64,000 bases of DNA from Pseudogymnoascus verrucosus (taxonomy: Eukaryota): assembly GCA_001662655.1 (NCBI GenBank), contig KV460222.1; one strand, 5' to 3'. Of the stretch, positions 21,551 to 44,683 are shown in pieces (positions within the stretch are counted from its first letter, which is position 1; each line of letters opens with the position of its first letter). The notes under the pieces are model-generated. The model made no database searches, was not told where the DNA came from, and was given only the letters and a program-made list of their open reading frames with translations. The translations under genes and the position numbers were made by a program.

Positions 21551-22029
21551 GCTAGCAGAATGGAGATGGCCGTAGGCGGCATTTTTCAGGAGTATAAAAG
21601 GATAGGGGAGGTGATGTCTGACGACATTTGGCGGGCTTATGGGGAAATCCGGCCAGGGGAGGGAAGGGGCACTACAAGTGTAGAAGGATGGATTTCGAGC
21701 TCGGTATTTAGTTAGAATTATGGCAACGATGATACCACGTGTTGTTCGAACCTGAGATATCTTTGATGCAACTCCGATTTCATTTTGAAGTGCCTCCCCG
21801 ATGTTGTCGAGAGATATAGTGCTAGGGCTCGCACCTAATATTGTGCATGCAGACTGGACTGTGAGCTAAGATCAGATGCTACTTTGTCTTCTTAAATTGT
21901 CTCATTTCCCATCCATATCTATAAGTAACCCACAACACGTCCTATGTAACTAAATACAGTACAGTATATACTCCTACACCAGCAACCCCAGGGTATCTAT
22001 CCAATACAACCCAATGCACCTCCTCAACC

Positions 22030-23337
22030 CTAGCTCGTGCTCACCCCCTCAGCCGCCAATATAGCCTCCTCTGTCTGTGTCCCTGCCTCCCTCTGCTTCT
22101 CCGCCGCCTGTCGCTGCAGCTCCTCCTTTCTCTCGGCCTTTTGTAACGCCAGAGCGGCCTCCTGGCTGCGATAGCTCGCGAGCCTCAGACTCGAAAGCAC
22201 GACGAAAGCCATGAAGACGATAGCCAGAACGGCGCGGCGTGTCAGGATCCAGCGTACGCCCTCGACCTCGGACTTGGTGTCACTGTTGAGCGCGACCGTA
22301 ATCTTGTAGCTGAGTTCCTGGATCTACGATGGGTTATTAAATGTACTGCCCGGGTGGGTGGGGGTGCGTGGATGAGTGGAAACACATACCTGGCTCTCCA
22401 TATTCGAGTGCTCCATCCGCACCTCCATCTTGCGATCATTGAACATCTCCTTCAACTCATCCTTCAGCGTCGCCAAATCCTGCGTCATCTTCTGGTTTAG
22501 GATATCCGCCTCATTCTGCAGCATTGTGCGTCGCAGCCGCATCCCCTCCGCGCTCGCCTTGCGCGCATTCTGGATTTCGGTTCGCAGCTCCGAACACGCC
22601 GCTTGGAAGAGGTATGTCTCATTCTCCACGTCGCTCTTGCTCACCAGCCCGTCTTTGGCCATGTCCAGGTTGGCTGTGAGCAGTGCTCGCACGATCTTCA
22701 TCGTCTCCACGCTCTGTGTGGAGGTGAAACCCCCTTCGGCGATCCGCTGTGTCAAAGTATAGGAGTCGAAATGATGCACGTATGGCGCGGGCGCGAGGTG
22801 CGGGAGGCTGCCGATGAGGCTCTCGAGCGGGGGATCCATGTGCAGGACTGAGTCTGTAGGAGCGGTGTCGCGATTGGCATTCGGATCTGGTGCGTCATCG
22901 GTGGTTTGCACAGGATTGTCCCTGTACTTGTCGGTCTCCACCTCCGCCTTCTCCTCCACTACCGGCGTCGGCGCTGCCGTCGCATCGCCCTTTTCCCTCG
23001 CTGCATCCGCAGCTGAGATACCCCCCTCCGCAATCGCATCGCCAGTATCATTCTCAGCAGCCCTCTCCGCCTGGCTCGTTACCCGTCCCTCACCCTCACT
23101 GCTCTCCTCGACCTTGTCCTCCCTCCCCTCCTTCTCCCCTTCAACAATCGGCTCAACACCTTTCCCCCTCCTCTCCGCGAACTTTGCCCCTCCCCCTGCC
23201 GTCCCCGCAAACCCCGCTCTCCTCTGCCTCCCCGAATGCGCGCATTGGCGCACAGCAGCGCCAGGCCCCGGACACTCGGCGCGGCGCACGGCGCGGAAGA
23301 GATGCGGGTATAGGAATGTGAGGCGCATGGTCGACAT
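22030..23337 (-). CDS. DUF1640 (CCDC90/MCUR1-like) coiled-coil protein, probably mitochondrial (1 intron ~22389-22325)
   Basis: Arg-rich presequence-like N-terminus, HHFDSYTL...GGFT...ENETYLFQAACSELRTE, coiled coil and a C-terminal TM segment. Confidence 0.85.
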
Positions 23338-24706
23338 TGTGGGTGTGTCGGATGGGTTGCAGCTGCAACTTGCGCTCGTGCGTGTGTGCGGGCTGTGAGG
23401 TGGTGGATTGGATCTTGGAGCTGGTCAGCGAGTATGCAAGGAAGCTTTATGGTGGGACGGGTGGACGAGGCCGCCGGGGAAGGGGCAATGATGTTCCAGG
23501 TGTGGGGTAGACACGTGATGGGGATAACCCGCCCTCATTCTTTTAGGTATAGTGGAATTTGAAATAAGAATCCCCGATTACTTCAATACTTAGTTTCTAA
23601 AGTAGAAATGGTTGCTATTACATAATGAGACAATGAGGCTACGAACAGCAACCTTCACCCAGTTACCTAGAAGGCGATTATAGGCCTACGGCCTCTATTT
23701 ATTCCTGACCCTGTGGCTAACTAACGGTAACGCTACCCGATTGGTTAGTATCGATAAATCCAATAAGCCTCATATAGCGCCCTACATGCATATTACACGG
23801 CTCCTCTCATTACTGGCTAGCCTTGCCTCGCAGCCGCCAACCCTTGAATTAAATACATCTGGCCTACAGTTAACATGTAGCTGGTTATATCGAGAACATG
23901 TATATCTTGAGATACCCGGAGCCATTCTCTATTGTCCCTGACCTCTAGTGCTGACCTACTTGCAGTGTAGGCTGTGCTGTTATCTCGTGTCAAAATTTAT
24001 CATCTAGACTCTTGCCGTTACACTCATAACATGTCTAGCTCAGGTGATAAATACGATACAGTGGGCATCGAAGGAATCCGTGTAAGGAAGAGGTAGATCT
24101 TGTAGTAGAGCAGGTTATAGCAGTGCGGCCACAGTGCTGTACTTATACACTGCATTAAAACCAGGTGTACTCGTTGATACAAATTAGGGGAGTATGATAC
24201 AAGGCCTCATTGCGGATGCCCATATCAAGGGTCTTGCGCGTGGCTTCACTGCCTAGAGCTGCCAGCTCATACTACGTGCATGTCGCATACAACTGACAGC
24301 ATATGTCCGCCAGCCTTCTCGTTTAACGTCTGCCATTGCTCTTCATGCCGAGGCAGCTGATACTTATACACGTGTTGGTAAGTATCCAAATATCTCTCAC
24401 GAGTAACACTATCGCCTCAAGGGAGAGAATGGCTGACTGGCTACAATGGATCAACAGTCGTTGCCGACGATCGCCTATCGGTTCATTTTACAGAGGGTGA
24501 GGAATTGTTCCCTGGCCCAATCGACGTCGTCTTCGCCATTGCCCTCCAAAAATCAAGCAAGTGACCGAGGGCACAGTCACTGTAAATATCACCACCCCTC
24601 TCAGTTTCTAGACGACAGTAGAGAACCATCTATGAGGATGAGTTACATGTTTAGTTTATGAGTCTTTAGCAACGACTTTAAATATCATATACTCTAACAC
24701 TTCTAC

Positions 24707-25890
24707 CTACAATCCCAAGACGCAATGAATACCCGCGATCACATTTTGAACAAACCGCTGGCTATCACTCAAACAGGAAAAGATCCAGAAGTAATGAGGA
24801 TATCCCTCATAATAATCGGACCACACCTTCACGCCTGCGTTCCTCAAGGCGATCTCCATCACTTTTCCGTCGCCACAAAGGGGATCGAATTCGCACGTAG
24901 CGAGATAGGTCGGAGGGAAAGACGGCAAATTTTTACTCAAAGCAGGGAATTGAACAGGGTCGGCTGGGTCACTGTCGATAGCGTCTGCGAGATATCAGCA
25001 TCCAATATATACCTAGGGAGATGTGGAAGCTCACGATAGAAAGTCTTCATCGTCTTCCTGTTTATGACAGGAGTGTCCTCAACATTGTCGTTGGTCGCAG
25101 TGTACGCGGAAACATATTCTTCTGGGATGTTTGAGGGGTGTAAGGTGGCTGGCACTAAAGCGACAATGCCAGAAATCTGGCTTCTTTTACCATCTGCTAT
25201 TAACCTCTCGGCGATGCCGAAGGAGAGTGCTCCTCCTGCAGACCCTCCCAAAGCGAAGTATCTGGTCTGATCTCCTCCTAGTTCGCTCGCCGCATTCCAC
25301 GCCTGTGCCATATCAATCGTCAGCATCTCCAACCCATAGGGACGACTATATAACAGTACTGACCCACTCCCATGCGGCGATGCAATCGTCTATCATGGTA
25401 GGCATTTTGTTCTTGGGTCCCAAACGATAATCGATTGAGACCACGATGCAGGGGGAGAACTGGGAAATGGCTCGGCATAAAGAATCCTCTGCCTCCAGAT
25501 CCCCCAAGCACCACCCCCCTCCATGGCTGTAAAGGCAGACCGGCAACTTACCAGCTGCAGACGATCCTTCAGGTTTATAGACACGTACCATCGGGCCGTC
25601 TTTGACTTTATGATCCGCTGATTGCTTTTAGTCTTGGTTCATCCTTCATTATCCTGTGTTGCACGTACTAGCAGCCACCACTGAAGGATCTTGAGGCGGC
25701 AATTGACTTTTAGCCAAGGCTACAATAGTGTCATATTGCCCGACCATATCTTCGATGCTTCCGTTGAGTACTGGACGCATTCCCAGGGCTTTCTCAAACT
25801 TGCCATTGAGTATAAGTTAGCTCCTTCTCTATATAAAAGCAAAATCTGGTAAAACAGTACCTCGAGCCACTCGGGATTATATGTTGCCAT
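24707..25890 (-). CDS. HSL-family alpha/beta hydrolase (esterase/lipase), 5 exons
   Basis: HGGG oxyanion motif, nucleophile GGSAGG, DPL and GYPHYF catalytic Asp/His motifs. Start MATYNPEWLE at 25890. Confidence 0.9.
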
Positions 25891-26016
25891 TTTGATGTTG
25901 ACTTTAAGTGAGATCTGAGTGGGTTGTAGTAAGGAGACAAGGTTGTATAATCGCCTAGGTGTTCTTCACTTCAACTTATACTTTAGCATACAGAACTGCA
26001 GGGCCAGATATGATTG

Positions 26017-26031
26017 TGTGCGATTCGCACA
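26017..26031. promoter_or_regulatory. Palindrome TGTGCGA-T-TCGCACA upstream of the esterase
   Basis: Perfect 7+7 inverted repeat ~127 bp upstream of the esterase ATG; extra half-site TGTGCGAC at 26056-26063. Confidence 0.7.
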
Positions 26032-26329
26032 TAAGTAATTTGGAGCTAGACTGTCTGTGCGACTAATTCATGAGCCTATCATGGTAGTGGGGGACCGATG
26101 GGCACCCAGAAGGCGGGGAAACACTACTCTCGTTCTCTATATCGGCTTTGGCGGGTACGCATCAGTCAGCCTACGGTAGCAAGATCAATAGCGTCGAATG
26201 TGTTCTACTACATGATTCCCTCAATATATTTGCGCAAGCTAGGGATATTCAAGCGTCGTACATTCACGGGTTCTTTTGCGTCTTAGAGTGTTCAATGTGA
26301 CAAGATATTTGCATTCGCAGTTTGAAATT

Positions 26330-28139
26330 TCACAAGAAACTTAAAGGCCCTATTTTGGTATATATCGCACTCACAACGATTGCACCGGCAGCGAGTACCC
26401 ACCCCATCGACATGAGACTCGAGGTCTGCTGAGTCTCTTCGATTATTCGGCCAATGTGCACTGGACCCTGGGACTGAAGTTGCGCTTTGTCACTCCCAGA
26501 CACAACAAAGTCATCCCAATCAACTACCGATGTCCGCTCCTGGTATTCAACAACAGTTCCACACCAATTGTTCGTGACCAGTCCATCAGCTGTCTTATAC
26601 CAGCTCTTACAGCTTGGGTTAGCAAATGTGCTGTTCTGTAGACGCTTTTGGATTTCGACATTATAGCTTTTGATACGCTGTGGGGCAGGGGCGATTGAAA
26701 GAGTGCCACCACTGGCACGTGCCTTCATGGTCGCTGAAATCAAAGTGTTGATATAGCGAGATTGTGCTTCTATCATAAGGATGATGGAATTGTGGCCTAG
26801 ATTCGTGTTGGGCCCGTAGAGCATCCCAAAGTTGGGAAGCCCTTCCACCGCGATCCCCAGGTAAGCCATTGCTCCATCCTTCCAAATATCTTCGATAGAT
26901 CGTCCATTGAGACCGGTGATTTTGATGGGATACATGAAATCGACTGTTCGGAAACCTGTCGCGAGGACTATCAAGTCGAACTCCTCAGCCTCGCCACCAG
27001 CCTTAATACCAGTAGAGCATACTTCCTCAATGGACCTTGTTTCAAGTCTGACGTTAGCCCTGTTTAAGGTTGGAAAGTAATCATCTGAGATGATAACCCT
27101 CTTGCAACCAGGCGGATAGTTGGGTGTTAATTGTTTCCTCAATGTAGCATTCTCTGGTATCTGTCGGTCCAACATTTCAAGTGACAGCTTTTTGAAGATG
27201 GAATTCATGGCCGAGTGTTCGTCGACGGCTGCATCGTAGAAGCTCTCACGATAATCCATGAGACCAGCGCGATAACGTTTACGAATTGTTGGGATATATT
27301 GATACATCCATTGCATCGTCCTGCTGATCGGCTTATCGTCTCGAGGAATCACCCAGTTTGGGGTTCTTTGGTAAACTGTGACATTCTTCGCAACCCCAGC
27401 AATTTCTGGTATGATTTGTGCGGCTGTGGCACCATTGCCGATGACCGCGATTCTCTTGTCCTTCAAATCAAACGAACGGTCCCACCGCGCTGAATGCATG
27501 GTTTTTCCTTGGAAAAGATCAAGGCCGTTGATGCTCGGATAAGCAGGCACATTAAGTTGACCCACTGCCGACACAAGAAAGTCACTTGTGATGGTGTAGG
27601 ACGGGGAATATTCGGCCTCCTTCTCACTAGCAGTGCGAACAACGGTCGACCATTGTTTGAGAGACTCATCCCAGGTCGCCTCTTCCACGACCGCATTGAA
27701 ACGAATATGCTCATAGAGGCCCCATGAATTAGCCACCCGGATAAGATATGCCAGGATCTCCTCTTGTGTTGGGTATTCTCGAGTCCATGAAGGATTTGGA
27801 TCAAAGGAATAAGAGTACAAATGACTCCATACTAGAGTGAGTTAGAAAAGTTATAATCTTTAATGTGGGAGCATATGGTTTACTGTCACAGCAGCATCCC
27901 GGGTATCTGTTGTCGTTCCAAGTCCCCCCAATTTGGCCGCCCTTCTCCACGATTATAAAATCTCGGCTTTTGTTCCTCTTTATCATGTCGATGGCGGTAC
28001 AAATGCCTAGGAGTGCGTTGTCAGCATCTGTATAACCGCCATCTCTTCTACATATTGTAGTTCAATGATCTCACGTACCTGAAGCTCCAGCACCGATAAT
28101 TAGGAGGGGCGTTCTGTTCTGATTGCGTGAGGTAGCCAT
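26330..28139 (-). CDS. Type I Baeyer-Villiger monooxygenase (3 exons)
   Basis: FAD motif [27 protein letters not shown] fingerprint [11 protein letters not shown] (FxGxxxHxxxW), NADPH motif [14 protein letters not shown]. Confidence 0.93.
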
Positions 28140-28495
28140 GATGATGATGAACGGAATACTGGTCGGGAGAGATACGAAAATCAAACTTCGAGTAATGAAT
28201 TGTTTGAAGAGCTCTAATATTTATCGGGTAGCACCACGTAGTTTATGTAAAACTCAGTTGCTGTCGAACTCTTGTCGCATTAAAGGCGATCGACTCAGCT
28301 ATTGTTCAGTTCAATATCGCCATGCTCCACACATCTCATGCCCCGCCAAACCCCTCACATTATTTAACGCTAGTTCGCCTGAGGGCATGAGTGCGACGTC
28401 GTACATTCCATATATTGAATATTCACAGTGGTCATTAAATGCATATTCTCACAATTGCTGGTTTACGGATTGATGGAGAGTTCCCGCGACTATCA

Positions 28496-28510
28496 TGCGC
28501 GACTCGCACA
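28496..28510. promoter_or_regulatory. Palindrome TGCGCGA-C-TCGCACA in the divergent BVMO/GMC promoter
   Basis: One mismatch to the consensus; a second variant GTGCGA-CG-TCGTACA lies at 28391-28405. Confidence 0.65.
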
Positions 28511-28807
28511 AATAGCATCCACTACTCTTAGCCCCACTTAATACCCCGCGATCTGGTCTCCCCTGCAATCTCGTCGTGGACTGTCCTTGTGATCTTCATC
28601 CTAGACCTTTGCCTGCATGAAAAGTGCAATCTAGATGCGGAGATGGGGTCGCACCCGATGGTCGACGAAATGGATGGCGGTGATAAAAAGTACTGTGTCC
28701 GGCGCACCCCCCGCAGAATAAATGTATGACGGCACAACCATACGAACTTTTTACCCCCCTATTTACTCTACACTCACAAGTGTGATAACACAATCGCATT
28801 AGATACT

Positions 28808-30919
28808 ATGACTATCTCTAACAATGTCGCGGACCACATAACAGAGGTAGATATCCTCATTGCTGGAGGTACGTCGGTCCATATCCATAATACTTTATCA
28901 CCAATACGACTCTAATCGTCCTGGCCTATATCTAGGGGGAACTGCTGCTTGTGTCCTTGCTGGGCGTCTTGCCAAACTCGACCCCTCACTGTCCATTTTA
29001 CTAGTTGAGGGTGGCAAAAACAATCATAATGACCTTACCGTCAATTGTCCGGCGCTCTTCCTTAAACACCTTGCACCAGACAGCAAGACCGCGATCTTTT
29101 ACAAAGGAAACAAAAGCGATGCCTTGGCTGGCAGAGAGCCGATTGTACCAACCGGAGGCATACTTGGCGGTGGATCATCTATAAATTTTATGATGTAATC
29201 CTCCTCGTCTTATGAATCTTAACTTCTCTCACTGTTATAGGTACACGAGGGCCCAGGGCGTCGATTTTGATAGCTTCAAAACCGAGGGCTGGACGCAACA
29301 AGATCTGCTACCCTTATTGAAGAAGGTGGGCACCCATGAGAAAATAGTTTAGAAGTCTGACCTAATATATGATAGCTCGAGACATTTCATTCGGATGATC
29401 CTATCATTGATCGAAATCTTCATGGCTATGATGGCCCCATCCATGTATCAAGCGGAACTCATCGAGCCACTCGTGCAGAGAGAGAGTTTCTCGAAGTTGC
29501 CTCGACACAAGGTTGGCCAGAGATAGTCGACCTTCAGGATCTCCAACAAAATAATGGGTTCTCAAGCTGGCAGCGTTATGTTAGCCCTGACGGAAGTATA
29601 TTACCCATTATATAAAGCTTCACTTATGGATTAAGGGCTAACACGCTTCAGAACGGCAAGATTCTGCACACAGATACATCCATGACTTGTTAGAACATGG
29701 AGACTACCCAAACCTTCACGTCCTCACGGAAACCCTGGTTAGCCGTGTCATCTTCGATGCCAAACGTGCAGTAGGTCTTGAGGTTGAGCCTAATATGGTT
29801 CACCGACCTCTCACCGGCCTCAGCAAACATCCCCGCACGCGCATTACAGCTAGGAAAACGGTTGTCATCGCTGCCGGTGCATTGGGCACCCCTCAGATCC
29901 TTGAACGATCCGGCGTTGGAGAGGAGAATCATCTTAAGAGTCTTGGGATTCCCGTCGTCGCTGATCTCCCTGGCGTGGGAGCGAACTACCAAGATCACCA
30001 CCTTACCCTTTTGCCATATAAGACCAGTCTTGCGCCAGATGAGACCATCGACGCGCTCCTATCTGGCAGGCTGGATTTAGAAGCTGCGGTTAAGGAGAAG
30101 AATCCTATTCTAGGCTGGAATTCCGTCGACATCTCCTCGAAGCTACGACCGCGAGATGACGAAGTTGCAGCACTTGGGCCCGAGTTCCAAGCAGCATGGG
30201 ACAGAGACTTCAAAGACTCACCATCGAGACCTTTAATGCTCATGGGCATTGTTTCTGCCTTTTTAGGGGACCCAAGTTCTGTTCCTGCTGGACAATACTC
30301 CACGGTCGGCTGCTATACAGGCTACCCATACTCTCGCGGCTCCATCCATATTAGTGGTGAATCGGTTTACGACCCTCCGTCATTTGAAACCGGATTTCTC
30401 AGTGACAAAGATGACCTTGACCTTAAGGCTCAGGTCTGGGCATATAAGCGCCAGCGAGAGATTTGTCGACGTCTCAGCACCTACCGTGGTGAACTACAGA
30501 TTGGGCATCCCAAATTCTCGACCGGAAGTGCTGCAGCTTTGGTGTCTTTTGAGGATGGTGCGCAGCCTGAAAACCGTAGTATGGAGGACCGCTGTAAAAT
30601 GCCCAATATCGAGTACTCGGCCGAAGACGACAAAGCCATTGCGCAGTACGTCCGCGAGAACCTGAACACCACCTGGCACTCGCTGGGTACCTGTGCGATG
30701 CGGCCCCTGCAAGGTGGCGGTGTCGTAGACAAGGATCTAAACGTTTATGGCGTGGAAGGCCTTAAGCTCTGTGATCTCTCGATCATTCCCGAGAATGTTG
30801 GTGCCAACACCAACAACACCGCACTCTTAGTTGGGGAAAAGGCCGCGGCTATTCTAGCTACAGAGTTGGGCCTCACCGATGGGGAAGGCGCGAAGGGGAA
30901 CCGAACAACCCAGTTATAG
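28808..30919 (+). CDS. GMC oxidoreductase, alcohol-oxidase-like (multi-exon)
   Basis: DILIAGGGTAACVLAGRL, GGILGGGSSINFMMYTR, GVGANYQDH, TTWHSLGTC and ANTNNTA (catalytic His/Asn). No signal peptide seen. Confidence 0.93.
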
Positions 30920-31735
30920 TCGCATGCCATAGATCATGTAAATAAGGAGGGTCATCCTGGTTGGCGCCCTACATAAATGCTATGAATACTTTACAATAAG
31001 GTTCTAAAAGCGTTGGTCGCTCGCGAGTTTAGCCACTACAAACTCAAGCGTGGGGGTCTCAACGACTACATCTTGGAATTAAATAAAAACAAGCATATTT
31101 TATAACTGACTTGGAGCACCATAGTTTTAATATTTAATACTAGAACCCTCTGTCATAATGCAAAAGCAAGTCTCTTATAATTGTAGCAGCCGGTGCAAAT
31201 TGGAACTTATGAGATTTGTGCTCCTGTCTTGCTGGAGGTACAGAGCTTAAGTAGGGAGCTCTGCAGTTCGTAACAGTAGCCTGTATTAGGGCCCGCGAAA
31301 GTTCGGAAATTAAGCTTCTTAAGGCCCCTAGCCGAGGGCCTAGCTGGAACTTGCTCCGCCCAAACTTTGGGCTCGAAGTGGCTGTTCATTGGGGAATTGA
31401 GGTCACAGGTGTGCTGGGTAGGCCTTAAGCCTTGAAATCTCTGTTGCTGTCTTGCCAACTTTATGCCAAACTCAAGATGCAGACCGTTTAGCAATTGAGG
31501 GCCCACGGCAACTTGTCTTAGCTTCCGTACACAAGGCATTTCTGAAGATATTAATTGAATGCTATCATTCTATACTATGGATACATCGAGGTTGATGAGT
31601 AGTACCCCGCTCTGGGGGCGCGTTTAGTGGCTGAAGAGTAACAAGTACTTCCAGCACCTAGCTGTATACGTCATATCATATTGAATCTAGCCAACCACGA
31701 TGATCTCCCCGCTACCATATGCCCCGCTTCATGCA

Positions 31736-31750
31736 TGTGCGAGTCGCACA
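31736..31750. promoter_or_regulatory. Palindrome TGTGCGA-G-TCGCACA upstream of the bZIP gene
   Basis: Perfect 7+7 inverted repeat ~190 bp upstream of the first ATG. Confidence 0.7.
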
Positions 31751-31940
31751 GGTCGTGCGGAGTCTACACAATCCGGGGCCCCGCGTTTCCTATTCATAGA
31801 TCTTCCGCCCCTAACGTCCAATGTCAGAAGACGCGGATAGAGCAACGAACACATCTTCCACTCACCTGGATGAGAACCCTGACACGCTATTACTGTATGT
31901 CAATTCAAGGTTCTTACAGTCGACCATCAATATATAATAT

Positions 31941-33618
31941 ATGCTAGCTATCATGCCGAAGACCCCGAAGACGCAGGCGCGTGCGACTACGGTGTTTGAC
32001 GGCGATTCGAAATGCCAGGCTCCCGTGAAGCCCTGGAGCTCAGGGCGCGTCATGACCAAGGAGCAACGGGCGAGGAAACGGGCAGTGGACAGGCTGGCAC
32101 AGCGAGGAAAACGGCGGGAGAGAGAGGCGCGAATCACACAGTTGGAGGCGGAACTCGCAGCAGCACGGTGCAGCCAGTCAGCTTACACGGCCCGTCCTAA
32201 CCAGGGCGAGGAAGAGAGAGTCCACAATGCCCTCCAATTCGATACTGTGGTTGCAGATATGGACTTAGCACACATTATAGACCCCGCGGTCTGGTTCGAA
32301 CCGCAAGCAGCCGGCTTGAATGCGAGCGAAGCCCGCGATCCTACTGAGCACGATCTCATTGAGCAGCTGTCGCCATCTGCCTTTATGCCAACAGCCCACA
32401 TCACTCAAAACGCCCTCGCGGGAGCGATTCTGCCAAGTGAACATTATACGCCGCACACATTTGCCCTGCCATCGCCCAACAATTTGCTGCATACATCGCG
32501 GATTGACGACGCTCTCCGCCGACAATCCAGTTGCAGTTCGATGATCAATTCGTCATTCGGCATCGATATCTTTGCTAGCAATAGTGCCGCCGACCTGCAG
32601 TACCTCTCGCCATTGGAGGACGGATATGAAAGCCAGACTATAACTGAGGGCCCGATATTTAGCCCTCTGCCCGTCTTCTCAAATACAAATACTACGACCA
32701 CACAGCCATACGAAAGTAGGAAAATAACAGCATCCTGCAACGTCGAGCTGAGTAGGGTGCTCCATCTACATAGGAGAGATGTTATCCTGCAGGAGCAAGC
32801 CAACGAGGATTTCCTTATTCGGGCGATTCTCTACGGCTGGGAGACCGTGGAGTGTCAGCATACAATATGTCCACTCCGGCGAACGCTGCGTCGAATTGAC
32901 GATCTTATTTTCCGTGATACTAGCGATATCACGAGGCTAGTCATGCTGGCTACTATTTACAAGATGCTTATCGTGAGTAAAGCCTGGCGTTCTTATAATA
33001 ATAGGGCATTGCCTAACTGAAAGGATGAAATAGTGTCGAGTCAAAGCCGAGTCATATCAAGAATTACCACAATGGTATAGACCTCGGTACAGTGCCCTCT
33101 AAATTTTCCTGATATCCGGTCACTAATAATAAATAGACCGACACAGAAACAATTCCCACACGACTATGTGATGGACTACTTCGCCTGGTTAGCTTTTGCC
33201 CTTCATCTCTTCCTGCGCTCTCTGCTTATAACTAAATCACAGGCCCGGTCTGCGCGAGCGGCTCGTGCTATCAGAACGGTACATCCTCACCGAGAGTTTC
33301 TGGCAGACTTTTGCTCATTCCTTCCGATTCCACTGGCCGTATGGTCTCGGGGAGGCATTTGCCACGGACAAGAAATCTGGCTATGTCCGATTCTCTGGCA
33401 CATTCTGGAACCACCTCCTAGAAATCCGTCACTGGCGCATGGACGTTGGTTTTTTAGAGATGTTCCCTGAGTTCTACGATGATGTTACTCCAGTGGAGAA
33501 GATTTGCCCTCAGTTGGAGTTGCCCCGTCGGACTAGTTGTTGGAATACAGAACTGTGGGAAGATGAGAGGAATGGAGAGGGACAGAGTGGTGCGAGATCA
33601 TCGCAGGGGTTGGATTAG
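31941..33618 (+). CDS. bZIP-like transcription factor with C-terminal DUF3425-like domain (4 exons)
   Basis: Basic region RARKRAVDRLAQRGKRREREARITQLEAEL; spliced C-terminus LPQWYRPRPTQ...PHDYVMDYFAWPGLRERL. Confidence 0.82.
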
Positions 33619-33689
33619 TACATAAACCGTGGTTTAGAAGCTGTATAAGTTGGACTAAAATACCATATTAATTTATAATACCGACAGAA

Positions 33690-34949
33690 TTATTTAAACC
33701 CTTTAACTCTCTTAAACTCCCATACTCTCCCGGCCGTTGAAGTCTCCAATACAGGCGCGTATTCCAGGACAGACTCAATAAATACCAACACCAACATGAC
33801 ACTTACCTTCCCCGCCTGTCCCTGTAGAACCAGCGTATCGTTCATCAGCCCGACCCCAAATGCCGACTGCTCCATTTTAACCTCCACCACAGGTGGCTAA
33901 ACTCACTACGCGTCAGCCGATCTCCTTTAAAAACAAATACGTGAGGATATCCAGAAAACGGGAAACTGAAGAGAACCTACGCGGTCAACACGATGCGGGT
34001 TTCCTCTACACCACCGCTTTAGATAGGCTTCCATGCACTCTAAGCTGGGCGCATGGCTTCCCTGGATAACAACGCGGTTATCCATATCCTGGCTCACAAG
34101 GAGCCAGTAAGGGGGCCTCCTGAGCAGCTCTTCTGGGCGGGGAATGAGAGCAAGGTCTGGGAGCCGGTCACTGGCGCTTTCTTGGGCCGCGATGCTTTGA
34201 CGTGGAAGAGCCGCAGGCGTGCGGTTTTGGGGTTCGATCGAGACGTCAGCCCATTCGGGGTCTTCGGATGCAATGGTTGAGACTGGAGCATCGAGAGATG
34301 ATGAAGAGAGTGGCGCGAAGAGAGAGAGAAAGTCTGATGAGAGACCTGCGTGGATTGTGCCGGCTGGGGGTAGTACGGCTTTTGGGAGTCCGATGACGAA
34401 GAGCTGTTTGCCTGGAAGCCATGCCGTGGAGGGCCTTGTTCCTGTCGTCAATACCTGTTGAACTACTTAGTAACCGCCGCAGCTGCATCGCCTTCCCCAC
34501 TTCTTGAATCGTTCTCTGCTCACAGAATAAAGAAAGAGCCCAACAGAAGAAGCATAAGAGAGCTAGGACTCACCTCAACAACAACCTTCACCACGGGATT
34601 CATCTCCTCCAACAACCTTTCCACGCCATCCTCATTCTCTTCGGCCTCTAGCCACGCAGTAAACACATCACACCACGAGACGATAACCCTTGCGATACCA
34701 GGGATGAATGTCGCGGGATCATCGTAGTACGGCTGTAACGCAGCCCAGAGAATTGGCCATTCCGGATCGAGAGAGATGGGGTATCCGATTGTCTTTCCCA
34801 GGCTGGCGGTGCGGATGGCAACGGCAGAAGTCGGGGAGGTGACAAGGTCACGGATGTTGCTGCGCAGACGCAGTGGCCTGAAAATAGCTGAGAGTTAGAT
34901 TAACGAGCGGAAAAATAGACGAAGGGCCATACAGGGTAGCTGATGCCAT
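33690..34949 (-). CDS. Hypothetical fungal protein (4 exons)
   Basis: Spliced model MASATLPLRLRSNIRD...DPEWPILWAAL...LPDLALIPRPEELL...SHAPSLECMEAYLKRW...SAFG; introns have consistent phases. Confidence 0.65.
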
Positions 34950-35492
34950 TTTATCGGTTTTGGGAATAGGTGCGTAGTGGTGTATGGGCCGAGTTGCGGG
35001 CGGGGGGTCTTTGAGCTACGAGTGAGCGTTGTGTCTCCCTTGCATTCAGGACCAGAGGTTGCAGCGGGGAAGTCGGAAGCAATTAATACGAATTGACCCT
35101 TGTAGGTTCGTGAGTGATGGGTTCTGCCTTGGAGCTCAGCTCCTGTAGCCAAGGCTGAGCTTGTAAACGCCCCACGGCACGGCTATATTGCAGCATCAAG
35201 CCACGCTCGCCAAGGCCATACGTGTGATAACTGCGATTGCTAATAGGGTAATATTTTACTGTAGCTAACTGGTTCTGATGAAAACAGGCGGGGACGGGAT
35301 TGAACAGGTTAGATTGATTTATATTCTATCCTGGTCGCGTTTGATGGCCTACTCTAGCTTATACTGTAATCTTAATATTCTACCAGAAGGTTATCCTATG
35401 CTCATTTCTCTACCTACAGAAACTAGCCTATTCTACGGCATAAATAGTGGTCATCTAAAAAGGCTATAGAGCAGAGCAACATATGTGACAGT

Positions 35493-36590
35493 TTATAGGA
35501 TATCCATGAGCTTGCTAGCAGCATCATGGACATTTGTGCCAAAGTAGCTAGGGGTGGTCTAACCGATAGTTTTTAGTATCTGTTCAAACACATTTATGAG
35601 TGGGAACAGCTTACCTGAATGACCAAATCCCCATTGTCCAGGGTGATCTCGTTATAGCTCGACTGGCCAGTCGTCAACTTGTCGACGATTCTTAGCTTGA
35701 GAACTCCATTTGGCGCCGCCTCCTCTAGCCCCTCTCTCAGCATCTCGTCCTCGTGAAACTTCTGGTAAGTAAGTGCACTGACGAAACCTTCGAAGTAGCT
35801 TGTCGCGAAGTTGCCAAGGTTCGTCTCCCAATCGTCTCTCACGTCCTTTCCCCCTTTCAGGCCAGCAGCCAGCTGCTCCCAAGAAGGGTCAAACGCGAAC
35901 TTCTCATTTTGCAGTGCCTTGCGCGCCTGCTCGAGGTAGGAACCAATCTTCTCGTCGTAGTTGGTCTTGATGGAGTTGCGTGCGGTATAGCTAAGTGGCG
36001 AGGCGCCCTCGGGTTGTGGGGCGGCAGAGAGAGTCTCAGCGAGCTTCTGGCCCGCTTGGTCGATGTTAGTACCGAGGCAGGTGGGGTTGAAGAGGAGGCG
36101 CAGTTTGCCCTCTTCGATGTCGGTGCCGCAGTAGCTGAACTTGGGTGATGCAACGAGGGTAATGGTGTGGGTTGGGGCGACGGTGTTAAGCTCGGTCTTG
36201 CCTTCCTCGCCGTGCTGGGAAAGGAAGTACTTCAACTGGTAAATGAACCCGTCGATGTAGCTGGCAATTCATTAATTCAGTCTCAAGGTGGGATTGAATT
36301 AGAAAATGCTAAGACTCACGCATAAATGCAGTCGCCGAGGGAACTGTGTCCGTAAGACCCCTCCTCTGCGTAGGGATAGATGGCGAGTGGGTTGACGTCG
36401 AACGTCCAGGCTTCCCCGAGCAGGGTTAGAAGCTGGGCTTCGAGTTCTGGCTTCTTGTTCTCCCAGCTATCGCGCACTATCCAGGCCAATTAGTCAAGTC
36501 TTTAAATATACTGGCAAGATGGTGGGGTGACTTACCATTTTTGCGGATAGCAAGAGGAAGCTTATCTGCGGGGGCTTTATCGGCAGACAT
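35493..36590 (-). CDS. Hypothetical fungal protein with an internally duplicated domain (4 exons)
   Basis: MSADKAPADKLPLAIRKNVRDSWE...; second unit LSYTARNSIKTNYDE.... Both units end similarly (GKLRLLFNPTCLGTNIDQAG vs GDLVIQTTPSYFGTNVHDAA). Confidence 0.8.
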
Positions 36591-37472
36591 AGTTTCTAGT
36601 ATAACTGGAGGACGAGAGGGGGTATTTTGTACGAATGAGAGAAAGAGCTGGTTTGTAAAATGAAGAGTGTCCTGTTTGTTTGGAGGAAGGTCCCAACCTT
36701 TTATGTACAGCTTAACCCGTCACTCCCGACCTCGTCCTCTCAGCTGGAAAGCCTCACAAAGCGCCTCTGTCAATAGCTTCTTGGCTTTACGGAACTTTCC
36801 TGTGACAAGCTGTGGGTCGCCATATTGTGGTGTAATACCCCTCACCTTACCATATTATATTTGTGGGTGTACGACGCCACAGACGGCTTGGGTTCAAAAC
36901 AAACTATTTAAAAGGGGTCTGTGCAATCCAGGCACCGGCCAGCGGATAAGAAGATCTCGAGACTACCCCAGCCTTACCACAGCCTTGTCGACGGCAAAAT
37001 TGTTCCAAACTATAATATTCAATTAATTATGACAACAACAGTTTAATGCCTAATAACTCATAATCAGCCTTGCCATTCGCCCTGAATGGATCGCTTTATA
37101 TGGCGAACCAGAGTAGCGCTTTCACGTTTCACGATGGGAATAAAAGCAGGGGCGGCTCATAGAAGCATTCTTGGCACGGACCCTGCTTGAGACCCCTGTT
37201 GTCTGCTGCTGCCTGTTACCAGGGGAAGCACTTTTGTCACCTGCAGGACAGAAAGGAATGCGAAAGCACATCGTGGATGCTCCTCGACAAAGCTGGACGC
37301 ATCATATCACAACGTGGTAGAAGCAAATGGAGGGAACAATTAAAACTGCATTGATGCAGAGCCCCTCAAAAGCGAGAATAGAATCTACAGAATAGGCAAA
37401 CTGGTAACGTTTACATGGTAGCTCACAGCAACCCTCCCCCCAAACCAAAACTCTAACTAAAAATCCCTTAGC

Positions 37473-38964
37473 TCACTGCCCCTTGGCTCCATGCTTCTTA
37501 GCTGCCTCCTTCCCAGATTTTGGCTTCTTGAACCCAAGCTTGGCAAACCCAGGTATGTTTCTATTCTCACCGCCAGAAGTGAAAGTGGCTGTCATGATCG
37601 CAGACGTCACAGACGAAGTACCATTTACTGTACAAGACACAATATTAGCAGATGCGCTCAAAACCACAGAAGCTGTACCATACCAGTAGCGGTCACGCTC
37701 GCAGAACCAACATCTGTCCCGACGACGCCCGGAGGCGCAGTGCCACTCGGTCCTCCACCAGACGGCATGGTGCCATTACCCATTGCTCCGCCGCCACTGC
37801 CTCCACCAACATTTCCACCACCCTCAACAGCATGTCCGCCATCGGCTGCAAGCTCAGCTGCTGGCGACGCCGTATATGTCGCGGTGCTATTAACCGCAAG
37901 CGAAATCCACATGAAGAGTCCATCTACCACCGTCTCTCCAAGGAGCACATAGTTCAGCATCGGATCGGAGTCGTTCACCAGCTCGCCCTGCACGACGCGG
38001 TCCTCGGCGTTCGTGGTGATTGCGATTGTGTTAGTAGAGTACGGGCTCAGCGCCTCAACCTCGGTAATCAGGTCCTGATCGAAGAAGAACTGTCCGATGT
38101 GCGCGATGGTGCCGCCGGTGTACGTGTTGTTTGACAGGACCTCGCCGTTGAGGTGCGCTTCAACGTGGACGTGTGTTGCGCGCCCGGAGTAGTGGCCGGG
38201 GAAGATGGAGGTGAACTGCGCGACACCGTTTTCGTCAGTGGCCTGCAGGCCGCGGAGGAAGGTGGCGTCGATATTGGAGGCATCGGTGGAGTCGCCGTTT
38301 CCTTGCGAGATGACGCCGGCGTAGACGCCGGTGGAGTTGCAGTGCCAGATGTCGGCTGTGAGGTCGACGATGGGGAGGCAGGTCGAGATGTCGATGAATT
38401 GCAGGTCGAGGATAACTTCGACACCCGGCTGGTCGTCTCTGATGTCAGAGCGAACGTACTCTCCTTGGACATCTGAAGAGGTTAACAGGGGCGATGAGGA
38501 GCGGTCGGGGGTAGGTACAGAAGGGGCCTTCTTCTCCTTCAGGCGAGAGGAGGCACGATGAGTTGGAGAAGATGATATCTTCCACGCCTGAAGTGGTCGG
38601 GCTAACATCCAAGGAGGATAGGTGAGATTCGTCCGTGGCATCTCTTCTCACGACCTCGCGACGTTCTAGAATAAGTGTTAGTTCTGTTACAGTCAAGAGT
38701 GTCTGGGGAAGGCTCACTCAGGGGCAAACCGCGATCAGCCCGAGCCTTCGCAATGGCATCCTCCCGGCGCTTGACGGACGCATCTTCTACACCGCGCTTG
38801 CGGAGGGCATCAGCGCAGTGGGAGAGGTCGCGACGGGCAGAGTTCTTCAGAAATGCATTCCGCTCGGCGATCTCCTGGGAAATGTCGTGTTCGGGATGGG
38901 CGACAACCTGCGTGGCAAGGACGGCCGCGACGGCGGCAACGAAGGCCTTGGAAAAGTAGACCAT
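37473..38964 (-). CDS. Secreted intradiol ring-cleavage dioxygenase-like protein (4 exons)
   Basis: Signal peptide MVYFSKAFVAAVAAVLATQVVA, EGPFY, DIWHCNSTGVY, FLRG, FPGHYSGRATHVH, GQFFFD. Last intron ~37683-37628 adds a Ser/Thr then Lys-rich tail. Confidence 0.88.
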
Positions 38965-40569
38965 TGTAAAAAATATGAGTATGTAGGTGCAATATTCTCT
39001 GCGGATATCGAACAGAATGGATAATAAGGAAGGTATCGTGAGTCTATTTAACCTTCATGCCGGTAAACCCTTCGAGGTAGTGGAGCAGCACATGAAGGCT
39101 TGAGATAGAACATAGATGCATACGTAACCTACTATATGTGAAAATCTGGGGATTTGCGAACTCTAGACTTCAATCTACATGAACGACGGAATTATCCTTT
39201 CTGTTGTAAACTCGACGACCTCGTGCCAGCCAATTACACGGCGCTAATAGTAAGCTTGTCTGAACCAAGCAAGGCCAAGGGACCAGCTAGAACAAGATTG
39301 ATAGATCCTAAAAGGGGTATTGCGATCCTGAAAGCTTGTGGGAGGGGTCCCTTGCAGAAGCATGGGGAAAATTAAAAGTCAATGCGAAATGGTTCTCACT
39401 GCCGTAGCGACGCGTCAGTGCATACGCGGCTTGCGGCTCATAAAGTAGATTATCACCAACATTAAAATAAGGTGTGCTAGTTGAGAATTAAGGCTAGCCT
39501 ATGAGCCTTCTCTTATTACCATGCCAAGAAGCTTTTGTGGATTTATATACCAGGATGCATTTTGAGCGGCTTGGGCGGTTTCGGTGAGGCCGTAGCAGTG
39601 AGCTAATTTGTAGTTTGTGGGGTAATTTGTGAGGATTGAGTTTATCTCTGTCTCTACTCGTGAGATAAGATTCCATTTAATATTCTCGAAGTCATAGCCG
39701 ATGCCAGATTTTACTTAGGTGGTGCTTCCTGGAAGCCTTCATGTCAGCAAATATCTAACATATTTACCCAAAGTTAGAATATTGAAAAGAAGCGCAGCCA
39801 AAGACGGGCCAAAAAGGGGAGACGAAAATAGAGAGCCTGCATCTCCTCTCCACTGCGCCGTGGCCGTGATGACACGGAAAAATAGCTCGTTGCTAAGATA
39901 GTTAGACCAGCATCCTCCAAATCTACCATAGATATCCCGAAGTCAGCTGGTGAGGGTCCCAGGAAACGCACCCAGGAAACGCATCCACAACAACAGCATC
40001 CGTCCGGTAACCAGTGATAAGAAGCACCGGATATCTCCATGTGGCACCCAACTTGTCAGGCGCTGGCTGCGCCAAGAAGAGAGAGAGAATCGAAGCCGAA
40101 AACGCAACCTCGGCCCCTAAAAACCGAAAAAACAGAGATAGCTCCTGGGAAACAAAGTACGCGGCAATGCTCCGCCACCTTATCAACACGAAACCAGTCT
40201 TTACATAGCAAAATGGTCATTATCCATAATGGCCACGCCCCAAAAGATTATCCAATGACACAGGTGACTCGTCGTCAATATCCTACCGCTCATGTTGCTG
40301 CAACTTAAGTATTGTAGTATCCTCGTTCTAGTGTCTCAGCTGCTACCCCCTTCTTCTCCTCTGGGTGCCCGCAAAGAAATTAACGAGCCACTCCTTTCTT
40401 TACATGGGTAAGTAAGCGTAAGCTTCGTATAGGAATATTTGCGGATAACTAGACTAGATGCGCGGCTTTCACCATGGTATTGTCATAATTCTATCGAAAT
40501 AACCTTACGCAAGATCGTGGTGTTGGAGCTCCTATTTCCGCCTGACATTGGTTCAGCTAGTCCACCCTG

Positions 40570-40912
40570 TCCCAAAGGATTCATCGTTAGCACAAACCCC
40601 TATGCCGCATCTATCTCTCCACAAAACTTCGCTAACCCGAAAGATTTCATCCCTGAGCGTTGGTTAGGCAAGAATAAAACAGATGCGTCAGATGCAACGC
40701 GGCCGTTTAGCTTGGGGAGTAGGAGTTCTTTGGGGCGAAGTCTTGCGTGGTCAGAGATGAATATTGCGTTATACAGGTTGATTTGGAGGTATAGAATTGA
40801 GAGAATAGGTGATGAGGTGGACTGGGAATGGGAGAGTCGGATGCAATTACTACGAAAGAAGCCGAAGTTGATGGTTAAGTTAACAGTACGAGTTAGGGAA
40901 GATAAGACTTAA
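40570..40912 (+). pseudogene. Cytochrome P450 C-terminal relic with heme Cys replaced by Ser
   Basis: FANPKDFIPERW and PFSLGSRSSLG (expected FxxGxRxCxG); no upstream P450 sequence found. Confidence 0.82.
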
Positions 40913-41032
40913 TGGTGCGGGTAAGAGAAAGAGCAGTAAATGTAATCTCTAGCGATTTATATGAGTGCTATTCTATGAATGCGATGGAGTGCCAGGGTGA
41001 TATGTTGAAGTCTTTTGAGATGTGTATCATCA

Positions 41033-42672
41033 TTAGTGTACACCGTTGACGCCATTCGTATTCGCCCCCTTAACGGCATATGTTCGTCGGAATTGGTCGT
41101 CAATATGCTCTAGATAGTACACTCCTTCGCCAATACTATCCAAGTCACCGGTCGGCGTGTAGTTCTTCTGGCCGTATGCTGCTTCGCGCAACTTGCAAGC
41201 CTGTTTAGTGAGGGTCAGCCATTGTTCGTGATAGTCATAAGGAGGGATATTAGGAAGAGCAAGAACCATTGTGCCATAAGAAAGAAAGAAAAAAAATACA
41301 CACTTCGTCATATTCCTGCGGGTTGGCGACGTGTCTTGCCTCCAATCTCCTCGCGAAATCAATCTTCCCAACAATACTGCTCACATCACCTACTACCTTC
41401 AGCGTGAACAGCGTACTGGCAATCCCACTACCGTAGCTAAACATGCCAATCGTCTTGTTCTGTAGCTTGTCAGACCCGACGTGCGACAGAACGCTGATAA
41501 GTGAGCAGTATAGGCTGGCAGTGTACATATTTCCGCAGCGGCTAGGATCTTTGATGCATGGCTCGATGCGCGAGGTGAAACGATCCTTGGTAAGGCTAAG
41601 AAACTCTCTCTCAAGATCCTTAGACTTTAGTGACTCTTCGTGAGATAGGTCTTGGAGTGATTTGGGGACGCTTTTGAATGTTACGTCAGCATTGTTGCTA
41701 AGAAAATCATTGTACAGCAGTCGGCCATAAGATTTGCTGACGAGTTTGCAGTTAGGCGTATGGAAGGCCATGAAATCGAAGACATCGATTAGGCTTTGGC
41801 GTTCCCGATTCAAGACCGCAACGGCGTCTAGGTTGCACTCCTTCAGCTTGGAGTCTATAGCGAGGCGGCCGGCGTTATTGCGCAGTTGCTTGTAGCAGCC
41901 ATCAAGAGCTGAGAGATAGCAGGAAATAGAAAGATGACCGTCTACTAACGGGTATTCAGACTTCATGTCGGGCTTGTAGAAGTCGTATGCATGAGCCATG
42001 TATGTACCACGGAGGGCAGGGACATATACGATCGGTGCATCGGGGCCAACAAGAATCGCAACTGATCCAGCACCACCAGTGGGTTTTGCAGCCACGTCCT
42101 TGTAAATGGCAATGTCGCAAGCAACGACAATGGCATCTCGGCCATCCCATGAGCGAGATTCGACCCAGTTAATGGCGTTGAACAAAGCGTTGGTACCACC
42201 GTAGCACGCATTAACTGTGTCGGCACCTTCTAAGGAGTGGTTGTCACCGAACAGTTGGGTAAGAACGGACTTGACTGATTTGGCCTTATCAATGGGTGAT
42301 TCTGTACCAACTTCGAGACGCCCAATGGACTGTGGGTCTATCGAGTACTTGCGGAGGAGGGACGAGACAGCGGTCAGGGCGAGAGAACAGACATCTGCAA
42401 GACGTCAGAGTGGTTTCTTCAAATCGGCATTCGTAGATTCTAGCTGCATAACTTGCCTTCCCGGTCGTTGCAGAAGTTCATGGACTTTAAACCAAGACCA
42501 ATGGTATATTTACCAGTGGATACACCTTGGTGAGCCTCAAACTGGGACTGATCTAACGTCTATACGCAGTGTCAGATGAGCTTTGAATCTTGAGAAAAAA
42601 AAGCGCAATGTGTACCTGGCTAGGGACATAGATCTCAATGGCCTTAATGCCTACGTTCTTGGGATATGCCAT
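41033..42672 (-). CDS. Hydroxymethylglutaryl-CoA synthase, ERG13-like, probably a second paralog (4 exons, one GC-AG intron)
   Basis: GIKAIEIY, GKYTIGLG, GRLEVGTE, catalytic NACYGGT, YDFYKP, FHTPNCKLVSKSYGRL, GNMYTASLY, FSYGSG. Confidence 0.93.
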
Positions 42673-44305
42673 GGTCTGTTGCTGAAAATAAAGCTGTGAA
42701 ACTCGACGATGTAAAGTTGAACACTTCCGCTCGACTTGTTTTTTGAGAAGTGCACATAGACTCGGAATTAGTTAGAGCCGAACAAGCAAGACTAAATATA
42801 GAATAAAGGCTGTATGGGGAACATCCGGGTCAGGTTGGGAATATGCCAGCTCTAACTTAACCGGCCTCGCAAGTGGACATCCCTTGCTGCCTAATTTCCG
42901 TTATTAGTCAACTTACCTCCTTTGGGTATTACCCCGTATAGTTTTGCTCTGGTCTACCTTGCACCATTGGCAGGGTTGAGGTTGGAGTTTAAGAGGAGAG
43001 AGGAACGGCCGCGTTAATGTACAGGATTTTCCAATCATACTAAACGTATAGAACACCCGATTTTAAGGCCAAGTTTTCAAACTAAGCAAATATCTATTTC
43101 TAGATTATCTTTACATATAAATGCACTTTGATCTGCGTAAATAGGCTTCCCTGAGTTATGGCAGGACTAGCCTTGCTCACATTGGAAAGGAGATCGACGG
43201 TCGTGCTGTACTACAGTACTATAATATCTTTTTAGTGGGGGGATATATGGCGCTACTGTGTGCAGGCCAATGTCACATTCCTACTCCGTACAGTATGAGA
43301 CTCGTACAGTACATGGCCGCTGGTACCTTAGCTAATGCAGCAGAGACCTCAGGCAGGGACGCTGAGGGAGGGTATTACTAACTGCTCTGGGTAATGAAGC
43401 CACCCGCAATTGCAGGGGCATCTACAATGAGGCAATGAGGCTTTGCTTTTCTACCCTTAACTTATATAAAAGAGTATATATGATTCCAATATAGTGTATA
43501 AGTGCGGTGCTGTTCTAGCTTGCTCCACTACCGACTGTACCTACACCTGCATCGCACCTATTCCTATGATGCCCACTGTATCGTATTTCTCACGCGAGCT
43601 GTGCACTCTCTATACAACGTGCACCATACCCACACTGTGCGCAGTAGATTTCATTTCCGGGTGACGTCCCGGGGCGCCAAGCGAGCGACGGATCGGACCG
43701 CAGTTTTCTGCTATGGCTCAGAAAGTCCTAGTGTTACTTGGGGTATAATTACTTCGTTTGCTGACACTATCACAAACAATCTATGGGCAGTAGGAGAGGC
43801 TTAGGGGAATACAGAGCTGATTATTATAGAGGATGTCGAACATAAAACTAGCTATAGGAGTCAAGGGGCAGGCAAATATGCCAGGAAGGGTTATGAACAT
43901 AGTGGGTCTCTTTCGTTTCTGTTTTCGACAGAGTGGGGGAATGTTGTCGTATGTCGTGAGGCCAAATCCATCAATCCCAGCTGCATAGCATATATTAAAA
44001 CCAACAAGCCCTTGTTCACATCCTCAAAGGTCCCAACCTTCGACAGATATCTCCATACTGTAAGATGAAGGTGCCCTTTTCTCTACTTTTCTTCTGCCTA
44101 GTATTTTTTTTATTAAGCTCAATCCTATCCTCATCCGCATTTCGCCCAGCCTCGCAACAAGACCTGTGCAAACATCAGGTTCATTATCATAGACATATAA
44201 CATCCACAAACTAGACTGTCGATAGTCGATGAGAGCAAACCCTTTCAGAATACCTCACGCATAAAGGGGATATTAGAATGTTCAGCACTCTTTCGTTCAT
44301 TTAAG

Positions 44306-44683
44306 ACGGAGGTCTACACGAGCGCATGGGCGGTGACGCATGATTCTAAGTATTTTAAGGATCTCATGGACTTCAACCCCGAAAGGTGGCTTGATCCCAA
44401 CAGCCAAGATGTTAAGGAGGCCAGTCAGCCATTCTCGTTGGGACCAAGAGGATGTTTAGGCCGCAAGTTAGTTGCGATCGCTGTGCTCCTGTTTATTACT
44501 TAGTCGGACTAAGTCGGACGGAATGCAGCTTTGCCTACATGGAGATAAACTTGCTGTTGGCTAAAAAGCTATGGAAGTACGACCTTGAATTAATCAATCA
44601 GGGCTTGGACTGGCTGAATGAGGGTAAAGTTTGTAATGTGGTGGAAACCAGAGCTGTTGGTTCATTTTCGACAGCCCTCTTAG
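44306..44683 (+). pseudogene. Cytochrome P450 C-terminal relic with a frameshift
   Basis: TEVYTSAWAVTHD...FNPERWLDP...SQPFSLGPRGCLGR, an intron, then FAYMEINLLLAK. The terminal VMWWKPELLVHF is in a shifted frame (~44632) and no intact N-terminus is present. Confidence 0.82.

Follow-up and report, generated by a model that had tools for sequence, protein, structure and literature searches.

A 64,000-nucleotide stretch of contig KV460222.1 from Pseudogymnoascus verrucosus (assembly GCA_001662655.1; the whole stretch is hereafter called the window) carries a four-gene cluster whose promoters share a 15-bp palindrome, TGTGCGA-N-TCGCACA. The cluster encodes an esterase, a Baeyer-Villiger monooxygenase (BVMO), a GMC oxidoreductase of the alcohol-oxidase type and a regulator that combines a basic leucine zipper (bZIP)-like region with a DUF3425 domain. 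That the palindrome is a real cis-element is, in our judgement, close to certain, and the sequence evidence makes it probable that it is bound by the cluster's own bZIP-DUF3425 factor, in which Asp occupies the position of the supposedly invariant bZIP Asn. A cluster-specific factor with palindromes in the cluster promoters is ordinary biology; the value lies in the pairing. A clean, conserved candidate site is matched with a factor from a large subfamily of fungal bZIPs in which this Asn is missing, and the site departs from AP-1 at exactly the base read by that Asn, which makes both the target of Asp-type bZIP-DUF3425 factors and the role of the Asp testable. If true, the assignment would give this large and little-studied class of fungal regulators a first clean target. 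It would also help to forecast which genes the orphan regulators of fungal clusters act on, and the element, with 3-5 sites in 30 Mb, could serve as a nearly orthogonal promoter part in tools for fungal expression. Should the Asp indeed read the altered base, the element would also be a sharp handle on that code.

A rare palindrome in each promoter region of the cluster

Pattern scanning placed three full sites in the cluster. Site 1, the perfect palindrome TGTGCGA-T-TCGCACA at 26017-26031, lies 126 bp 5' of the esterase ATG (25890). Site 2, TGCGCGA-C-TCGCACA with one mismatch at 28496-28510, is common to the divergent BVMO and GMC genes, 356 bp from the ATG of the former (28139) and 297 bp from that of the latter (28808). 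Site 3, again perfect (TGTGCGA-G-TCGCACA, 31736-31750), is in the regulator gene's own promoter, 202 bp from the ATG at 31953 and 190 bp from an in-frame ATG at 31941; ATG positions were taken off the sequence ruler. These are exactly the coordinates given by an earlier, sequence-only reading of the window, whose distance of ~190 bp for site 3 holds for the in-frame ATG. The two lesser elements that it reported were also located: a variant with a 2-bp spacer, AGTGCGA-CG-TCGTACA, at 28390-28405 in the divergent BVMO/GMC promoter, and a putative half-site, TGTGCGA(C), at 26056-26062 in the esterase promoter. Its statement that every promoter carries the palindrome is correct for three of three promoter regions, with the meaning that three regions serve four genes; each region has one full site, and the divergent region additionally has the CG-spacer variant.

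At up to two mismatches the window yields 10 strand-matches; shuffling predicts 0.57, and none of 100 shuffled sequences had as many. The flanking intergenic segments 23425-24697 and 33620-33926 held no match at this threshold. We then consider the window's own genome (30.2 Mb, 151 contigs). Exact TGYGCGANTCGCACA occurs there at three places, all in the cluster (reversed control: 0), and TGTGCGANTCGCACA at up to one mismatch occurs at five places, three of them in the cluster (reversed control: 4). Markov models trained on 0.53 Mb of sequence predict 0.06-0.12 perfect 15-mers per genome; two were observed, 5.7 kb apart. The CG-spacer variant is the sole exact match to GTGCGACGTCGYAC in the genome. 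The word formed by half-site plus core, GTGCGASTCG, is not enriched (97 occurrences versus 125 for the reversed control), so that the palindrome is neither a dispersed repeat nor the site of a global regulator. A motif that was common genome-wide or part of a repeat had been named beforehand as fatal to the assignment, and neither was found. The two off-cluster 15-bp sites with one mismatch (C2:974009 and C8:356918) are the same in number as in the control and have uninformative neighbours.

The core has AP-1 geometry and the regulator has Asp for Asn

Read from its centre, the site is GTG-CGA-S-TCG-CAC. The consensus sites of AP-1 and of the cAMP response element (CRE) are TGA-S-TCA and TGA-CG-TCA, respectively. 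The core CGA-S-TCG is the former with T replaced by C at ±3, and the 2-bp variant, CGA-CG-TCG, is the matching CRE form, seen once and carrying a mismatch. The description of the motif as unlike AP-1 and CRE sites has to be revised in this respect, as one transition per half-site separates the core from AP-1 and the variant has CRE geometry. The AP-1 sequence itself is not what is found (the core is CGA-N-TCG, and no TGASTCA occurs in window positions 22001-42000). The central base is C or G in six of seven full sites (p = 0.06), counting the three of the cluster, one at a distant orthologous locus (L059) and three off-cluster ones, all described below. The site contains two CpGs, and binding could thus be methylation-sensitive.

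The regulator gene (31953-33618, plus strand) matches DUF3425 (PF11905) at 27.6 bits for the window exon, against a cut-off of 27.1, and at 65.8 bits for the full-length ortholog P0002. The protein consists of a bZIP-like basic region (D46 ... R54), a short zipper, a disordered linker and a compact C-terminal domain that includes DUF3425. When an ortholog profile was aligned to the bZIPs 7aw7 and c-Jun of the PDB (best E 0.029), D46 was matched to the invariant Asn and R54 to the invariant Arg; in place of the canonical N-x7-R/K signature the protein has D46-x7-R54, and it keeps a Leu ten residues after the Arg. Asp stands at the Asn position in all 21 aligned sequences covering it, and in 99 of 107 parsed relatives among the best 150 examined (43 were unparsed). 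As far as these alignments go, Asp at this position is a trait of the subfamily, which comprises 808 fungal bZIP-DUF3425 representatives at E ≤ 0.001. Relatives are named bZIP in UniRef and Atlas clusters. The AlphaFold2 model of P0002 has a helix at 36-78 (43 residues; predicted local distance difference test, pLDDT, 80-94) that is continuous through basic region and zipper, with heptad residues I61/L64/L68. In the same model, residues 256-460 have pLDDT ~97, and the helical region and DUF3425 form a single domain of ~200 residues. For the full model and for the C-terminal domain of the relative P0201 (pLDDT 95), Foldseek found nothing at E ≤ 0.001, and VIA gave Z scores of at most 5.3 and 6.0; such weak matches neither hint at a function nor prove that the fold is new. 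A two-copy prediction of residues 22-475, made without an alignment, scored 0.01 and is no evidence for or against a homodimer.

In AP-1 complexes the conserved bZIP Asn hydrogen-bonds C2 and T-3 (PMC8754650). On chemical grounds, Asp would be unable to donate to thymine O4 and able to accept from cytosine N4, which fits the C at ±3. The sites with their rarity, placement and conservation, the enzyme families and the Asp at the Asn position are seen directly; we infer the binding, the dimer, the activation, the reading of C by Asp, the off-cluster targets and the pathway, as follows. A dimer of the factor would grip GTGCGA-S-TCGCAC as an AP-1-type pseudo-palindrome with C for T at ±3 and flanks extended by 3-4 bp, and would also tolerate a CRE-type 2-bp CG spacer. 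One site per promoter would lead to co-induction of alcohol oxidase, BVMO and esterase, with feedback of the factor on its own expression. The factor probably reaches two further genes elsewhere, for an aldehyde dehydrogenase and an acyl-CoA ligase, which would give a route from alcohol via ketone or aldehyde to ester or lactone, acid and acyl-CoA. A more far-reaching proposal, which we put forward tentatively and regard as rather doubtful in its entirety, is that the Asp-type subfamily represents a natural specificity switch: Asp would turn reading of T(±3) into reading of C(±3), the N-terminal PWSSGR-x-T segment would read the flanks, the ~200-residue domain would sense the inducer, and the regulon would extend to the aldehyde dehydrogenase and the acyl-CoA ligase.

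The site recurs upstream of a distant ortholog

Homologs of the regulator with species names are from Pseudogymnoascus (73-93% identity); a metagenome clade contains near-full-length members with 30-34% identity. The locus tags of BVMO and regulator are two apart in two named Pseudogymnoascus genomes, and a 70% identical BVMO and a distant regulator are both reported with a longest contig of 355,208 bp, which together suggests that the cluster is conserved. From 311 candidate stretches one distant locus was recovered, L059, a metagenome contig of 1172 bp. Its open reading frame (ORF) matches the first 107 residues of P0013 exactly and shares 34% identity with the window factor. The contig carries, at 418-432 and 417 bp 5' of the ATG, CGTGCGA-G-TCGCACA, of which 14 bp (419-432) are identical to site 3; the L059 and window regulator promoters otherwise do not align. 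This 14-bp motif is the longest word common to the 849-bp L059 promoter and the window regulator promoter, and it is the top blastn match of the L059 promoter to the 64-kb window. Among 1000 random stretches of 1033 bp, one had a 14-mer in common. Absence from orthologous promoters, which the sequence-only reading had named as a further ground for rejection, was thus not observed at the one locus recovered.

Among closer relatives, the whole stretch is present in one piece in X7 and X4 (~98% identical), and the cluster is syntenic in X23 (~88% identical). No substitution is listed for X23 at 26009-26040, compared to 32 over 25837-26045 (~15% substitution); the chance of such a substitution-free gap is 0.005 for 32 bp and 0.08 for 15 bp. 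Site 1 therefore appears intact in X23, provided that the listing is complete there. An aligned block starts at 28490, 6 bp 5' of site 2.

Off-cluster cores and a possible wider regulon

In the whole genome the perfect 13-bp core is found five times, twice in the cluster, twice on C13 and once on C7; the latter three had not been mentioned before. The C13 pair, two copies of GTGCGA-G-TCGCAC 505 bp apart (L061:4604 and 5109; C13:185603 and 186108), lies ~1.2 and ~1.7 kb 5' of an aldehyde dehydrogenase gene, and a pair within 505 bp is well above expectation (about 1e-4). A divergent TRF-domain gene borders the same region, with its ATG 0.6 kb away from the nearer of the two sites, and either gene may be the target. 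The C7 core (C7:107057) is part of a 17-bp palindrome, AAGTGCGA-C-TCGCACTT, with a partial copy 19 bp upstream (L063:5039-5070; C7:107038-107069), ~730 bp 5' of a gene for an AMP-binding acyl-CoA ligase. The C13 pair and the C7 core suggest, from their positions, an alcohol/ketone catabolic regulon. Oxidase, BVMO, esterase, aldehyde dehydrogenase and CoA ligase would make up a coherent alcohol/ketone route akin to subterminal oxidation. Cores with one mismatch are not enriched (30 versus 47 in the control), and the 12 that were inspected out of 25 such 13-mers (nine single-site loci, one two-site locus and site 2) revealed no consistent theme.

About six TCACGTG E-boxes, several of them 24 bp apart, lie at L061:5178-5302, 5' of the TRF-domain gene. 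At L064:4866 and 4898 (C58:117365 and 117397), two cores with one mismatch, GTGCGAATCGTAC and GTGCGAATCGAAC, are 32 bp apart, with no clear target gene identified.

Other DUF3425 loci of the genome

The genome has 18 DUF3425 loci (19 matches), of which at least six besides the cluster factor are Asp-type, and the neighbourhoods of all 17 other loci were examined. A second cluster, at L049:3135-9100 (C1:1585-1591 kb), encodes a beta-lactamase-fold esterase, a BVMO-type monooxygenase and an Asp-type regulator with the basic region QRARKRAADR; QRARKRAxDR is common to the cluster factor. Its divergent promoter of 480 bp contains five CGA-G-TCG cores with flanks that differ from those of the cluster sites. 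These cores sit in a single-copy 15-bp tandem array of 6.5 copies (4435-4532) that is open in frame on both strands. As a parallel for an Asp-type regulator they are only suggestive. The word ATCGASTCGAT is found at 25 places genome-wide, versus 7 for the control; being common, it shows that the L049 core alone is not specific.

Palindromes of other sequence, repeated and with odd spacers, accompany DUF3425 genes at L027/L028 (C3), L055 (C31) and L048 (C1): CGAATA-G-TATTCG (5 copies at up to one mismatch), GCCACA-N-TGTGGC (2) and GAGTA-N-TACTC (3).

Weighing the binder of the palindrome

Rarity, confinement to the cluster and presence in the ortholog's promoter make the cluster's bZIP-DUF3425 factor, already proposed by the sequence-only reading, the best candidate for the binder, and this part of the proposal stands as probable. 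Several observations weigh against the assignment. The Pfam cut-offs for bZIP_1 and bZIP_2 are missed by the regulator: P0002 and P0013 are without a match at E 0.001, the window protein has none, and the L059 ortholog reaches E 0.009 (16.5 bits versus a cut-off of 27.6). The zipper is short, about two heptads. Conservation at a distance comes from a single promoter (n = 1), and in X23 site 3 lies inside an unaligned, replaced stretch (31645-31767). A site in the promoter of a transcription factor gene is equally compatible with an upstream regulator. The number of perfect cores outside the cluster, three, exceeds expectation only slightly (p 0.06-0.22), and the L049 cores, being one tandem expansion, count as one event and could be coding. 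Finally, no CGASTCG was found in nearby promoters for five of the six other Asp-type paralogs; a rule by which Asp implies CGA-S-TCG nearby was rejected on this account, and since Asp is not sufficient, neighbouring residues must matter.

In the main rival explanation, the binder is an AlcR-like activator of the Zn2Cys6 type, unlinked to the cluster, which recognizes paired, inverted GTGCG(G/A) half-sites and has the cluster bZIP gene as one of its downstream targets. Against our assignment and in its favour, the published AlcR site atgcatgcggaaccgcacgagg resembles the context of site 3 (PMC13606033), where an AlcR-like half-site, CGTGCGGA, follows after 3 bp (31754-31761), and AlcR controls alcA and aldA (PMC13606033); two perfect cores lie 5' of an aldehyde dehydrogenase gene here. 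The site 3 context and the aldehyde dehydrogenase with the motif are the reasons why this explanation deserves weight. However, all full sites have CGA and never CGG, and their spacer is 1 rather than 2 bp. The canonical target is alcohol dehydrogenase (ADH), yet a 20-kb radius around each of 30 sites contained not one of the 75 ADH_zinc_N matches. The cluster promoters show no excess of the AlcR half-site WGCGG (6 in their 2142 bp versus 205 in 56271 bp), whereas they are enriched in GTGCGA (8 versus 20 in the same lengths). Taken together, we consider an AlcR-like activator unlikely.

An unlinked Asp-type bZIP-DUF3425 paralog, or a heterodimer, might instead govern a wider alcohol/aldehyde regulon. 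The number of DUF3425 loci, the Asp-type members among them and the perfect off-cluster cores speak for it, but none of the three best 15-bp sites lies outside this cluster, and the paralogs are distant, aligning at 30-36% and over no more than the C-terminal domain, some with palindromes of their own; we give this explanation a low probability. That no protein site is involved, and the palindromes are remnants of repeats or transposon footprints or a structural hairpin, is very improbable. CpG-rich palindromes do arise by chance, and 22 perfect ones with arms of at least 7 bp are present in the window. Sub-words are not enriched, though, no larger repeat is found within any of the three promoters, and the arms hold while the centre base varies. 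A loop of 1 nt cannot close a stable hairpin, and the loop here has this size. As the word is also kept 5' of a 34% identical ortholog, the repeat or hairpin explanation is unlikely and largely refuted. The cluster's own Asp-type factor is thus the reading that we retain.

Relation to described systems

The element resembles AP-1/GCN4 and CRE sites in its pseudo-palindromic form, a 1-bp centre that is S in most full sites, a single 2-bp CG variant, and GA and TC at ±1/±2. It differs in the C for T at ±3, in conserved GTG/TGTG flanks that extend it to 13-15 bp, and in the Asp for Asn of its proposed binder; the Asn contacts to AP-1-type sites are treated in PMC8754650 and PMC6545440. The best analogue in logic is Yap8/Arr1 of S. 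cerevisiae, a cluster-encoded bZIP that uses a 13-bp extended pseudo-palindrome, Y8RE (TGATTAATAATCA), in a divergent promoter (PMC6545440). Cluster-encoded bZIP, extended palindrome and divergent promoter are common to both systems, and like the Yaps the factor here carries Gln where GCN4 has Ala239 (PMC6545440). Its proposed site, unlike that of Yap8, has a GC-rich core; the factor itself carries Asp in place of the Asn, lacks a Phe/Tyr at the Ser242 position and includes a DUF3425 domain, and its cluster encodes catabolic enzymes rather than arsenic export.

The view that no site had been defined for the family does not hold, as the bZIP-DUF3425 protein A7370 of Curvularia lunata binds a promoter directly at a site, ACGGCTGAC, defined by electrophoretic mobility shift assay (EMSA) and chromatin immunoprecipitation (PMC13113314); it is not, however, the cluster motif. 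A7370 has the same pair of domains as the cluster factor, but its site is a non-palindromic 9-mer bound with a dissociation constant of 10.6 uM, and it acts in trans on another regulator (PMC13113314). One end of an A7370 probe (hit-30, supplement of PMC13113314), TGTGCGGA, is near the cluster half-site, which may be chance. TeSrdA of Talaromyces (315 aa) has the same domain pair, bZIP_YAP plus DUF3425, and represses cellulase genes; EMSA was carried out on promoters, and no site was resolved (PMC12765306). DUF3425 and bZIP also occur together in PMC9223689.

Aspergillus nidulans AlcR resembles the system described here in the inverted repeat of a TGCG-containing half-site and in the association with alcohol and aldehyde oxidation genes, and it autoregulates. 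It differs as a Zn2Cys6 factor, in its CGG triplets and 2-bp spacer, and in the ADH target that is missing near the sites here. The enzyme set and its order resemble subterminal oxidation, described for bacteria, from secondary alcohol to ketone and on via BVMO and esterase (PMC11644497); in the cluster an oxidase replaces the dehydrogenase. Apart from one unrelated paper on hepatitis C virus, no occurrence of the motif came up in the literature searched, which included few subscription journals and no figure-only logos or motif databases such as CIS-BP; supplements of microarray or DNA affinity purification sequencing (DAP-seq) studies may hold it. No paper on fungal bZIPs with Asp for Asn was found in that literature.

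Genes of the cluster and its surroundings

The cluster is set between a CCDC90-like gene and an unrelated ORF. The esterase gene (24707-25890, minus strand) has several introns and encodes an alpha/beta-hydrolase (Abhydrolase_3; PF07859, E 1.5e-6 with one exon) whose translation contains GGSAG, a GDSAG-like motif. Type I BVMOs are recognized by the motifs FxGxxxHxxxW and [AG]GxWxxxx[FY]P[GM]xxxD. The translation of the BVMO gene (26330-28139, minus strand; FMO-like by Pfam) carries both of them and has a C-terminal hydrophobic segment, and the best PDB matches of a 94% identical ortholog are OTEMO, CHMO, steroid monooxygenase and PAMO. The GMC gene (28808-30919, plus strand; GMC_oxred N and C Pfam matches) encodes a protein whose closest PDB relatives are alcohol oxidases (E 1e-97), the next GMC class following at 1e-29. 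A contig of X16 skips the first GMC intron at GT..AG; judging from this one joint, at a depth of 2.9, X16 looks like RNA, and it covers only pieces of GMC and BVMO.

Outside the cluster, an HMG-CoA synthase gene is flanked by cytochrome P450-like fragments at 40433-40912 (Pfam p450 match) and 44200-44700 (recognized by eye), both of which look like relics.

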